In this document: positions 10,477 to 57,379 of the stretch, in pieces
Layout of the letters: each line of letters starts with the position of its first letter
Numbering within the stretch: position 1 is the stretch's first letter
Assembly: GCF_024502345.1 (NCBI RefSeq)
Contig: NZ_JALDNN010000001.1
Source: Escherichia coli
GTDB taxonomy: Bacteria > Pseudomonadota > Gammaproteobacteria > Enterobacterales > Enterobacteriaceae
Strand: one strand, 5' to 3'
Length of the DNA stretch: 64,000 nucleotides
The notes under the pieces: generated by a model
What the model was told of the DNA's origin: nothing
What the model saw: the letters and a program-made list of their open reading frames with translations, nothing else
Database searches by the model: none
Translations under genes and position numbers: made by a program

Positions 10477-11775
<1,299 letters not shown>

Positions 11776-36515: not shown

Positions 36516-39838
<3,323 letters not shown>

Positions 39839-40055: not shown

Positions 40056-40428
40056 CTATGCCGGATGCCACCTATGCGGCAGCAGCTCTGCAATCTCACT
40101 AGCTCGCTGCGTCGGCAACCGTCTCAGCACATCCTTGAGATAGGCATACGGATCGTGCCCATTATTACGGGCCGACTGGATCAAACTCATGATCGCAGCA
40201 GCGCGCTTGAGCATGCGAACCCGCGCCGAGCATTTGAGAAGGCAACGGGATGAACGCTGGCTGGATAGCCGTGGTTTTCTGGGTAAGCAGGCGAATCCAT
40301 TTGTGGACGAGGTTGGCATTGAGGCTGTAGCCCAAGGCGATGTTTGCGATGGAGGCACCGGGTTCAGAACACTCCTGAATGACCTGGGCCTTGAAAGATT
40401 TGCTGTAGGTACGGCGCTGAGGGCGCAT
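40056..40428 (-). mobile_element. IS66-family remnant: TnpA N-terminal part joined to TnpC C-terminal tail (internal deletion)
   Basis: MRPQRRTYSKSFKAQVIQECSEPGASIANIALGYSLNANLVHKWIR (IS66 TnpA-like HTH) and, in another frame, ...AAAIMSLIQSARNNGHDPYAYLKDVLRRLPTQRASEIAELLPHRW (IS66 TnpC C-terminal motif). Confidence 0.5.
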
Positions 40429-54797: not shown

Positions 54798-55949
54798 ATG
54801 GCCTATCTCGACCCGTACCAACGCCCCGCGCCGGACCGCTTCGTCCGGCGCGGGCTCTTCATCACCGCCTGCATTGCCGCGCTCATGCTGCTGTGGCAGT
54901 TTCTGCCCGCCATCGAGGCATGGTTCAGTCCGCGCGAGGCAGCAGAACGCACCGTGATGGCGCGTGGCGATCTGGCGGCGGACGAGAAAACCACCATCGA
55001 ACTGTTCGAAAAATCGCGCGCCTCGGTGGTCTACATCACCACCGCGCAATTAGTACGCGATGTCTGGACGCGCAACGTGTTCTCCGTGCCGCGCGGCACT
55101 GGCTCGGGCTTCATCTGGGACGACGCCGGCCACGTCGTCACCAACTTCCACGTCATCCAGGGCGCGTCCGAAGCCACCGTCAAACTGGCCGACGGCCGCG
55201 ACTACCAGGCCGCGCTGGTGGGGATGAGCCCCGCGCACGACATCGCCGTGCTCAAGATCGGCGTCGGTTTCAAGCGCCCGCCGGCCGTGCCGGTCGGCAC
55301 CAGTGCCGACCTCAAGGTGGGTCAGAAGGTGTTCGCTATCGGCAACCCCTTCGGCCTGGACTGGACGCTCACCACAGGTATCGTCTCCGCGCTCGACCGC
55401 TCGTTGCCGGGAGAAGCGGGCGGCCCGGCCATCGATCACCTGATCCAGACCGACGCCGCCATCAACCCCGGCAATTCCGGTGGCCCGCTGCTCGATTCGG
55501 CTGGGCGGCTGATCGGAATCAATACCGCCATCTACAGTCCGTCTGGCGCCTCGGCCGGCATAGGCTTTGCGGTGCCGGTCGATACCGTCATGCGCGTGGT
55601 GCCGCAACTCATAAAGACCGGCAAGTACATCCGTCCGGCACTGGGCATCGAGGTGGATGAGCAGATCAACGCGCGTCTGCAGGCGCTGACCGGCAGTAAG
55701 GGCGTATTCGTATTGCGCGTGACGCCGGGCTCGGCGGCGCACAGGGCCGGGCTCGTCGGCGTCGAGGTCACCGCAGGCGGCATCGTGCCCGGCGATCGCG
55801 TTATCAGCATCGACGGTATCGCCGTCGACGACGTCACCACATTACAGGCCCGGCTAGACGACAAGAACGTTGGAGATGTTGTGGTCTTGTTAGTGGAGCG
55901 GGCCGGCAAGACTCGCGAGATGCTTGTGGAACTACAACCGGGAGTTTGA
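54798..55949 (+). CDS. degP: DegP/HtrA-family periplasmic serine protease with single PDZ domain
   Basis: ORF 54774..55949; start at MAYLDPYQRP after aggag; catalytic H (TNFHVI), D (DIAVLKI), S (GNSGGPLL); C-terminal PDZ. Confidence 0.85.
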   Translation: MAYLDPYQRPAPDRFVRRGLFITACIAALMLLWQFLPAIEAWFSPREAAERTVMARGDLAADEKTTIELFEKSRASVVYITTAQLVRDVWTRNVFSVPRGTGSGFIWDDAGHVVTNFHVIQGASEATVKLADGRDYQAALVGMSPAHDIAVLKIGVGFKRPPAVPVGTSADLKVGQKVFAIGNPFGLDWTLTTGIVSALDRSLPGEAGGPAIDHLIQTDAAINPGNSGGPLLDSAGRLIGINTAIYSPSGASAGIGFAVPVDTVMRVVPQLIKTGKYIRPALGIEVDEQINARLQALTGSKGVFVLRVTPGSAAHRAGLVGVEVTAGGIVPGDRVISIDGIAVDDVTTLQARLDDKNVGDVVVLLVERAGKTREMLVELQPGV

Positions 55950-56173
55950 TGGAAAGTGGGTCATGGATCTGCACAGCGAAGCAGCCAAGCGACTTCAGCC
56001 TTGCGCCGAACTACGAGCCCTAGCTAGGGATGGTCTGAAGTAGCCCTGTATTTCCGGCTGACTTCAGCCACTGCTGATTTTGAAAGCGGTGAACCGATCA
56101 AAAACGATCGGATCACCCGCTCATTTCGGTGCTTTCAGCCGTCGCGAGCACCTTGCGACGGCCATTTTCCGCA

Positions 56174-56770
56174 TTACAGGCGCACCTCTCCTGCGCTTGC
56201 CAGCAAATGTCGGCGGGCCATCCATAGGTTCGACAGGGCAAACAGCGTCACCAGTTGTGCAGTGTTCCTCACCAGCCCTCGGAAACGTACCTTGGTGTAG
56301 CCGAACTGCCGCTTGATCACGCGAAACGGGGGCTCTACCTTCGCTCGCACTTGCGCCTTGGCCTTCTCGATCTTGCGCTTGGCTTTGTACAGGGCGCTGC
56401 GTTTATCGAGCATCTTGTAGGTGCTGCGGCGTGCTGCGACCTGCCAGATCACTTCTCGGTCGGCATGCTCGGAGCGCTTTTCGACGCCGGTGTAGCCGGC
56501 ATCGGCGCAGACGACGTTCTCGTCGCCGTGCAGCAGCTTGTCGACCTGGGTGACATCCGCCACGGTGGCTGCCGTGCCCACCACGCTGTGTACCAGCCCC
56601 GATTCATCATCAACGCCGATGTGCGCCTTCATGCCAAAGTAATACTGGTTCCCCTTCTTGGTCTGGTGCATTTTCGGGTCGCGCTTGCCGTCCTGGTTCT
56701 TGGATGAACTGGGCGCGTGGATCAGCGTGGCATCGACGATAGTCCATCTTGATAATATCGGGCCGCTCAA
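56174..56770 (-). pseudogene. IS5-family transposase fragment (C-terminal ~190 aa; 5' part absent)
   Basis: ...DATLIHAPSSSKNQDGKRDPKMHQTKKGNQYYFGMKAHIGVDDESGLVHSVVGTAATVADVTQVDKLLHGDENVVCADAGYTGVEKR... DDE_Tnp_1-type motifs; no N-terminal domain upstream. Confidence 0.65.
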
Positions 56771-56911
56771 CGCTCGGGTACCAGGAGGTGACGGACCCGT
56801 ATACCAAAGAAAAATACTTTGAGTACGCCCATGACGGCAAACTGATGGGGCAGCTACTGATACCCTCGAACCCTGACAATCAGGAATAAAACAACGACAA
56901 AGGAGACAAGA

Positions 56912-57379
56912 ATGACAATACTTTCACTAAGTCGGTTTATGCTGGCGGGTGTACTGCTCGCGAGCTTTAATGCCTCTGCTATCCCGGGGTTCTGGCAGCA
57001 GGGTTACGGTCAGGGCAATACGGAATACAGCGTGACCGAAGCCAGCGGAAAGACGTTTACCATCAACTGCACAGGGAACCCGGACCAGAATGGTTTCTAT
57101 CAGCATTCAGTCTTTCTTACCCTTGCCGATGACAAGATGGTCAGTTCGCACGATGACGACACTACTATCACCGTAGTGATGGATCACCAGCAGTACATTA
57201 TTCCGTCCAGCCTGGGCTGGCGTAACGGCGATAACGCCTGGTTTGACTTCATCAGCAATATCTCTGAGGCCGGGCAGTTCGACGTCTACGTCAATGACCA
57301 CAAAGCAGGGACCTTCACTGCGGACCGGAAGAACACTGAGAAAGTTCTGTCCACTCTCGGAGACTGCAGCAACGACTGA
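56912..57379 (+). CDS. secreted hypothetical protein with signal peptide (YkfB/YfjT-like by size and context)
   Basis: 155-aa [26 protein letters not shown]... ; two Cys (CTGNP...DCSND); precedes DUF905/antirestriction cluster as in CP4-type prophages. Confidence 0.45.

Follow-up and report, generated by a model that had tools for sequence, protein, structure and literature searches.

An open reading frame (ORF) for part of an IS5-family transposase lies at the right edge of a stress island in the 64,000-nucleotide stretch of Escherichia coli DNA analysed here (the window), raising the question of what it is left from and whether it ever served to move the island. The island is the locus of heat resistance LHR1, or tLST: its genes run in the order sHSP20, ClpK, FtsH, sHSP-GI, YfdX1/2, HdeD-GI, Trx-GI, KefB-GI, PsiE-GI, HtpX and DegP, its GC content is high (0.58-0.67 over 41-56 kb except for two 1-kb bins of 0.53-0.54 at 49-51 kb; flanks approximately 0.46-0.60), and it is 99.8% identical to the PGAP-annotated copies of E. 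coli Z226-5 and E. coli C. On the left it is preceded by the mhp operon, in which mhpA is truncated, and by a pile-up of IS elements; on the right the CP4-6-like genes ykfB, ykfF, yafX, ykfG and onward follow. The transposase fragment sits, as a preliminary description of this DNA had placed it, at the right edge of the GC-rich module.

Passages on the island's surroundings in Mercer et al. 2015 (PMC4563881), Boll et al. 2017 (PMC5383660) and Kamal et al. 2021 (PMC8290217) describe it as consistently bordered by mobile elements or transposases, among them IS5, IS3 and Tn7; those passages do not resolve the flanks to the nucleotide level at this junction, whereas we have worked out the insertion site, the empty site and the microhomology junctions. 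An IS flanking the LHR and an annotated pseudogene beside it are thus already known in kind; the nucleotide-level history is the new detail.

The transposase fragment and the IS remnant that contains it

The features between the last LHR gene and the first intact gene of the neighbouring island are as follows.

54798-55949, plus strand: degP, the last LHR gene (orf16), encoding a DegP/HtrA-like S1C serine protease (Pfam Trypsin_2 and PDZ_2; PGAP 'S1C family serine protease' in the identical E. coli C sequence)
55950-56027, plus strand: native LHR 3' flank, 78 bp, ending in CTAGCTAG, whose second CTAG (56024-56027) is the target site
56028-56743, minus strand: ISPa16-like IS5-family remnant, 716 bp of approximately 1.19 kb, larger than the ORF
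56028-56043, plus strand: inner terminal inverted repeat GGATGGTCTGAAGTAG, intact, on the downstream side of the transposase stop, aligning to ISPa16 GGAAGGTCTGAAGTAG
56081-56162, plus strand: two strong predicted hairpins in the subterminal non-coding region of the IS (minimum free energy -44.5 kcal/mol, z = -5.7)
56174-56743, minus strand: transposase pseudogene, codons 138-326 (189 codons) and stop; DDE_Tnp_1 kept, no DNA-binding N-terminus
56740-56743: junction 1, TAGT microhomology between the IS and a brxR-type gene
56744-56781, minus strand: stub of a BrxR-family WYL regulator gene, 38 bp, supplying the first 9 codons of the ORF in a non-brxR frame
56779-56781: junction 2, TAC microhomology of a 4,390-bp deletion
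56782-56889, plus strand: 3' fragment of a yafY/yfjS lipoprotein gene, the last 35 codons and stop (Pfam YfjS_YafY), 100% identical to E. coli C yafY from position 11273 of its locus (L001)
56912-57379, plus strand: ykfB, the first intact gene of the CP4-6-like island rightward (PGAP name in identical sequence)

The ORF, 198 aa from a TTG start, occupies 56174-56770 on the minus strand. Its residues 10-182 match positions 7-200 of the 200-position Pfam DDE_Tnp_1 profile (E 2.7e-35, 122.4 bits against a cutoff of 23), and NCBIfam transpos_IS5_4 matches it at 216.9 bits (cutoff 140) through positions 113-285 of 285 only; the catalytic domain therefore stands above the curated cutoffs of both collections. 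DUF772, the N-terminal domain of a full-length IS5-family transposase, lies at residues 50-112 of an intact 326-aa relative and is absent from the ORF, which BLASTP aligns to residues 131-326 of that relative at 94% identity, so that profile and domain matches cover only the C-terminal 60% of the protein. Codons 1-9 (56744-56770) belong to the brxR fragment rather than to the transposase.

With the intact element as query, tblastn and sensitive blastn found neither an N-terminal transposase half nor any other copy in the 64-kb window, and no second terminal inverted repeat was found there at up to three mismatches, 56028-56043 being the sole match. The preliminary description had called the ORF an orphan 3' fragment without N-terminal domain, comprising some 190 C-terminal residues of DDE_Tnp_1 type, and had proposed looking for the matching 5' half or inverted repeat; the profile ends, the missing DUF772 and the empty searches within the window agree with it, and the length can now be given as 189 residues (138-326 of 326). 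Mapping the exact boundaries, where it had allowed that an intact IS5-family element might come to light, revealed none.

What the boundaries do reveal is an IS remnant that extends beyond the gene: besides codons 138-326 of the transposase it holds 130 bp of non-coding DNA and the transposase-distal repeat. Because the transposase gene converges on degP, the missing portion is the outer one: approximately 476 bp with the outer repeat, the promoter side and transposase codons 1-137. By blastn the remnant is 98.6% identical to an LHR-linked copy in Klebsiella and 89.5% to nt 1-716 of ISPa16, and its collinearity with both runs from 56028 to 56743 and ends there.

ISPa16, from the Pseudomonas aeruginosa plasmid Rms149 (NC_007100), is the closest named element of the IS5 family; it is 1192 bp long, has the repeats GGAAGGTCTGAAGTAG and GGAAGGTCTGAAAAAG, and has CTAG on both sides. 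Intact relatives are built alike: they measure approximately 1.19 kb, encode one transposase of 326 aa that carries DUF772 and DDE_Tnp_1, have the 16-bp repeat GGAAGGTCTGAAGTAG and target CTAG. The remnant differs in consisting of nt 1-716 from the transposase-distal end with a single repeat, where an autonomous IS of the IS5 group has two; that repeat has one mismatch to ISPa16 (GGATGG against GGAAGG). At 89.5-90.4% nucleotide identity for the remnant, and 94% amino-acid identity for the intact LHR-linked transposase, the divergence from ISPa16 is borderline for calling them the same IS. Taken as a whole, the feature is very probably a non-functional ISPa16-like IS5-family remnant that travels with the LHR1/tLST heat-resistance island.

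Insertion site and outer ends in other LHR copies

Past the degP stop (55949) the window reads ...GAGCCCTAGCTAG/GGATGGTCTGAAGTAG..., the IS end falling at 56028, 78 bp after degP. IS-free LHR copies (L022/L023) share the window's flank up to exactly 56027, and in Acinetobacter, Klebsiella and pFAM21805 such copies run through the CTAG site as GAGCCCTAGCTAG/TGCAGTGG...; the flank sequence of Acinetobacter pittii p1_005046 and of K. pneumoniae OW849087 is GAGCCCTAGCTAG/TGCAGTGGGGGG.... At least 60 plasmids, among them the LHR2 plasmid pFAM21805 (NZ_KY416992), preserve this native flank over 429 bp. The IS5-type insertion abuts CTAG, the empty site is CTAGCTAG/TGCAG, and any CTAG copy at the outer end would have gone with that end. 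Since IS-free LHR copies exist and read through CTAG, the ISPa16-like element appears to be a secondary, simple insertion into the CTAG of a pre-existing LHR flank. On the same comparisons it characterises the LHR1 lineage, of which it is a marker, and is absent from LHR2-type copies.

The native IS-free flank (3029-3457 of L022/L023) is AT-rich and apparently non-coding, and in many plasmids, from Acinetobacter, Klebsiella, E. coli and Pseudomonas fragi, it breaks off sharply at ...GGGTTAGGATGAAACTT. This may be where an older mobile unit truly ended; an inverted copy of the end sequence, sought in the window as a test for a transposon end, was not found.

The inserted element has lost its outer end at positions that differ by lineage, to IS903 in Klebsiella and to an IS3-family element in Kluyvera. 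K. pneumoniae CP041936 and the second LHR of E. coli EcPF16 (WP_001446313.1) carry the element at the same point and in the same orientation after degP, at 98.6-99.6% identity; unlike the window they retain an intact 326-aa transposase ORF, yet their outer repeat is gone. The outer ends are as follows.

K. pneumoniae CP041936: transposase intact, IS903 in place of the last ~24 bp
E. coli EcPF16, second LHR: same cut point as CP041936, then an IS3-family fragment
Raoultella and Enterobacter plasmids: cut ~10 bp earlier
Kluyvera ascorbata: cut at ~nt 980 by an IS3-family element
Other plasmids: cut at ~nt 531-543

Outer-end cuts across lineages include IS nt ~1157 and ~1168. No intact outer repeat was found in the Klebsiella, Raoultella, Enterobacter, Kluyvera and EcPF16 second-LHR copies examined. 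EcPF16 itself (L020 1-4470) has two chromosomal LHR copies. One has the truncated IS; in the other, whose IS lies at 76.1-77.3 kb of NZ_CP054224, the 326-aa transposase gene is intact, and behind it comes an IS3 fragment that is split by a group II intron. A scan of species-representative contigs for the LHR/IS junction matched Kluyvera ascorbata only.

The left edge of the island is of a different make, and adjoins the LHR with the following feature.

40056-40428, minus strand: IS66-family remnant, made up of a DDE_Tnp_IS66_C tail at 40056-40220 (E 2.9e-17) and a tnpA-like HTH_Tnp_1 ORF at 40165-40428

Beyond it lie IS256, partial IS3/ISEc52 and intact IS30. Klebsiella LHR plasmids share the left flank from 40113 and Acinetobacter copies from 40506 only, so the IS66-family remnant, too, is lineage-specific. 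In the pile-up at 36578-39838, which resembles the insN/insI region of CP4-6 in K-12, an intact IS30 (383 aa) abuts the truncated mhpA, and a partial orfB of IS3/ISEc52 and a gene of the IS256 family (432-aa ORF) make up the rest.

Two microhomology junctions within a CP4-like island

At junction 1 the IS reads ...GACGATAGT/GCCC and intact brxR ...CCCGTAGT/CCATCTTG, with TAGT shared at 56740-56743. The brxR partner is 3'-truncated, its last approximately 212 bp being gone. The counterpart of the DNA past 56743 in E. coli C is a minus-strand gene with a WYL domain, annotated as a BrxR-family regulator in some genomes; the stub of the window is continuous with brxR there (L001 6845-7535) and 97.5% identical to the intact brxR of strain HM670, where a 301-aa BrxR homologue heads a defence cassette. 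At least 115 complete E. coli genomes have the IS/brxR junction, as do 8/8 metagenome contigs retrieved with a junction probe; among species-representative genome contigs it had 0 matches. From 55900 to 56781, that is, from degP through the IS fragment to the 38 bp of brxR, the window is 100% identical to E. coli C and approximately 100 other complete genomes, and PGAP labels the gene at this common junction, B6N50_RS18600 in E. coli C, 'IS5 family transposase, incomplete, missing N-terminus' (pseudogene).

Where the window leaves off, E. coli C-type genomes run on with ~690 bp of brxR and then a GTPase gene, a DUF932 gene, yfjR, ypjK and full-length yafY. In this common E. coli arrangement the junction also creates a chimera (E. 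coli C, L001 6275-7534, minus strand): a frameshifted N-terminal part of brxR, with wHTH and WYL, shares its reading frame with the DDE domain of the IS5 remnant, as an uninterrupted 419-codon ORF behind the brxR start; PGAP treats it as two pseudogenes, and it is deleted in the window.

Junction 2 ends the shared stretch. The window position 56781/56782 joins E. coli C L001 6882 to 11273 with TAC shared, and relative to E. coli C the 4,390-bp deletion has taken the rest of brxR, the GTPase gene, the DUF932 gene, yfjR, ypjK and 112 yafY codons. A search of 5,426 complete E. coli genomes gave no instance of the resulting brxR/yafY junction. It does occur in a Logan contig of 2.3 kb, ERR2855845 (L007), which matches the window there at 100% identity, and this independent assembly shows the junction to be genuine.

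A second rare variant was seen in a Logan contig (L006) and up to three similar contigs, with the junction GGGTA/TTGCC and its right endpoint at ypjK codon 3. The left deletion endpoints of this contig (~3850-3855) and of the window (56776-56782) coincide within 1 nt at GGGTA(C), corresponding to 6880-6882 of L001; the right endpoints are 563 bp apart, at codon 113 of yafY for the window and L007 and at codon 3 of ypjK for L006. Because the window, L006 and Z226-5 share the degP SNP T143M (window 55225), found only in these three among the fetched LHR copies, the two variants may possibly have arisen by sequential nested deletion. A fixed left end with variable right ends could instead point to a localised break rather than to random illegitimate recombination, the 38-bp brxR stub marking a recurrent site-specific double-strand break or nicking site with one-sided resection; we regard this as rather unlikely, and if true it would mean a fragile or targeted site, previously unnoticed, adjoining a heat-resistance island. 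An IS insertion was considered as the cause of the shared breakpoint and rejected: no complete E. coli genome has a match broken at that endpoint. Compared with all fetched LHR copies, the window also has three private substitutions, synonymous at HtpX I280, HtpX R313S and synonymous at DegP T193 (window 54647, 54744 and 55376).

From these observed junctions we infer the order and mechanism of events. In an enterobacterial LHR1 ancestor the IS would have inserted, in convergent orientation to the operon, at the CTAG lying 78 bp past degP. In the E. coli chromosomal lineage a TAGT microhomology deletion would then have removed the outer ~476 bp of the IS and joined the rest to a brxR-type regulator gene, truncated at its 3' end, from the host CP4-like island; and in the window's lineage the 4,390-bp TAC microhomology deletion would have followed, leaving one inverted repeat and a pseudogene with the DDE domain only.

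The same arrangement is also found outside the E. coli chromosome: the 254-kb Citrobacter freundii plasmid p6_A (NZ_CP048383; L025 6536-30091) carries the entire chromosomal block, in the order IS256, IS66 remnant, LHR, IS5 remnant, truncated brxR, and the GTPase gene through a CbtA toxin gene. Since this plasmid holds the complete E. coli arrangement, a larger CP4-like island is the present vehicle, inside which LHR1 moves between replicons and species.

Mobilisation, retention and possible function of the remnant

Could the LHR nevertheless once have been a composite transposon between two IS copies, since decayed? This is what the preliminary description had taken the boundaries to be compatible with, and its observation of IS-derived sequence on both sides of the module stands: the left IS66-type and right IS5-type remnants are common to E. 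coli chromosomes and Klebsiella plasmids, in keeping with the phrase 'flanked by mobile elements' that is applied to the LHR/tLST in the literature passages cited above. What fails is the pairing. The left debris is IS66-family, IS256, IS3 and IS30, not IS5, so that the flanks come from different families, and no second ISPa16-like or IS5 repeat or sequence exists elsewhere in the window; neither two copies of one IS nor two usable ends are available. Both outer IS ends around the LHR unit are deleted or overwritten. The IS5-type element itself looks like a simple CTAG insertion absent from other LHR variants, and its outer end, needed for mobilisation, is missing in the window and in every relative examined. 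TAGT and TAC microhomology at the two truncation junctions speaks for illegitimate recombination, not transposase action, and the block shared by E. coli and the Citrobacter plasmid travels within a larger CP4-like island. The composite model is thus already largely refuted, and we hold it to be very improbable. An IS-flanked island, as the nucleotide map makes clear, is not proof of composite transposition.

Without DUF772 or another DNA-binding domain, promoter side or outer repeat, the remnant should be unable to transpose or to mobilise the heat-resistance island. A strict promoter scan of 55800-57000 gave no promoter-like site on the minus strand and one, of no obvious relevance, on the plus strand, and the TTG start is preceded by CCTCCTGGTACCCGAGCG, which has no Shine-Dalgarno or other purine-rich motif. 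The remnant is therefore best read as dead and, by prediction, not expressed; because the domain is complete and has no internal stop, a truncated protein made from read-through transcription is possible.

Could such a protein be functional, as a domesticated DDE protein or as the active partner of a transposase encoded elsewhere? The ORF is open, it holds a whole DDE_Tnp_1 domain, and the fragment is 100% identical across ~100 genomes. This conservation reflects recent clonal or horizontal spread, however, and together with only 2 differences in 570 nt from the intact E. coli copy, both nonsynonymous, it appears to carry no statistical power on selection. The protein would also lack the N-terminal DNA-binding domain and would start in unrelated brxR sequence with neither a Shine-Dalgarno motif nor a same-strand promoter-like site, and its upstream part changes with the lineage, from the 419-codon chimera of E. 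coli C to the 198 aa of the window. We find a functional protein barely credible.

A role for the DNA of the inner end deserves more consideration, and would add to the reading as a dead remnant rather than replace it: the hairpins may have been exapted as a terminator or 3' stabiliser of the LHR operon. Both are very stable in the LHR sense direction, and the second (56138-56162) is followed by CAUUUUCC, a short U-run that makes it a predicted terminator-like structure. A prediction in Mercer et al. 2015 (PMC4563881) puts an LHR terminator 177 bp after orf16, at about the same position; every independent truncation that we saw spares at least ~530 bp of the inner end; and the hairpin region is largely conserved in ISPa16. 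Yet the U-tract is short, a strict terminator scan of 55800-57000 called none, and IS-free LHR variants, LHR2 among them, work with a different flank. Passive retention would also be enough, since degP and the transposase ORF are ~225 bp apart and a deletion that removed the region would need an endpoint in that interval. An Rfam scan of 55700-57100 gave no match at E <= 1. We consider exaptation a possibility on the unlikely side.

As exact k-mer markers, the LHR/IS, IS/brxR and brxR/yafY junctions could distinguish LHR1 sub-lineages among food, clinical and wastewater E. coli, a use of modest practical value.

One further arrangement involves the remnant after loss of the island. In E. coli 99COLEC (L026 5384-6472), CP61_Sichuan and 2017.10.01CC, a truncated mhpT runs directly into the final 165 bp of the IS5 remnant, with the truncated brxR after it; from this fusion, a large deletion appears to have taken the mhp operon together with the IS pile-up, the LHR in its entirety and the greater part of the IS remnant, leaving the tail as a scar.
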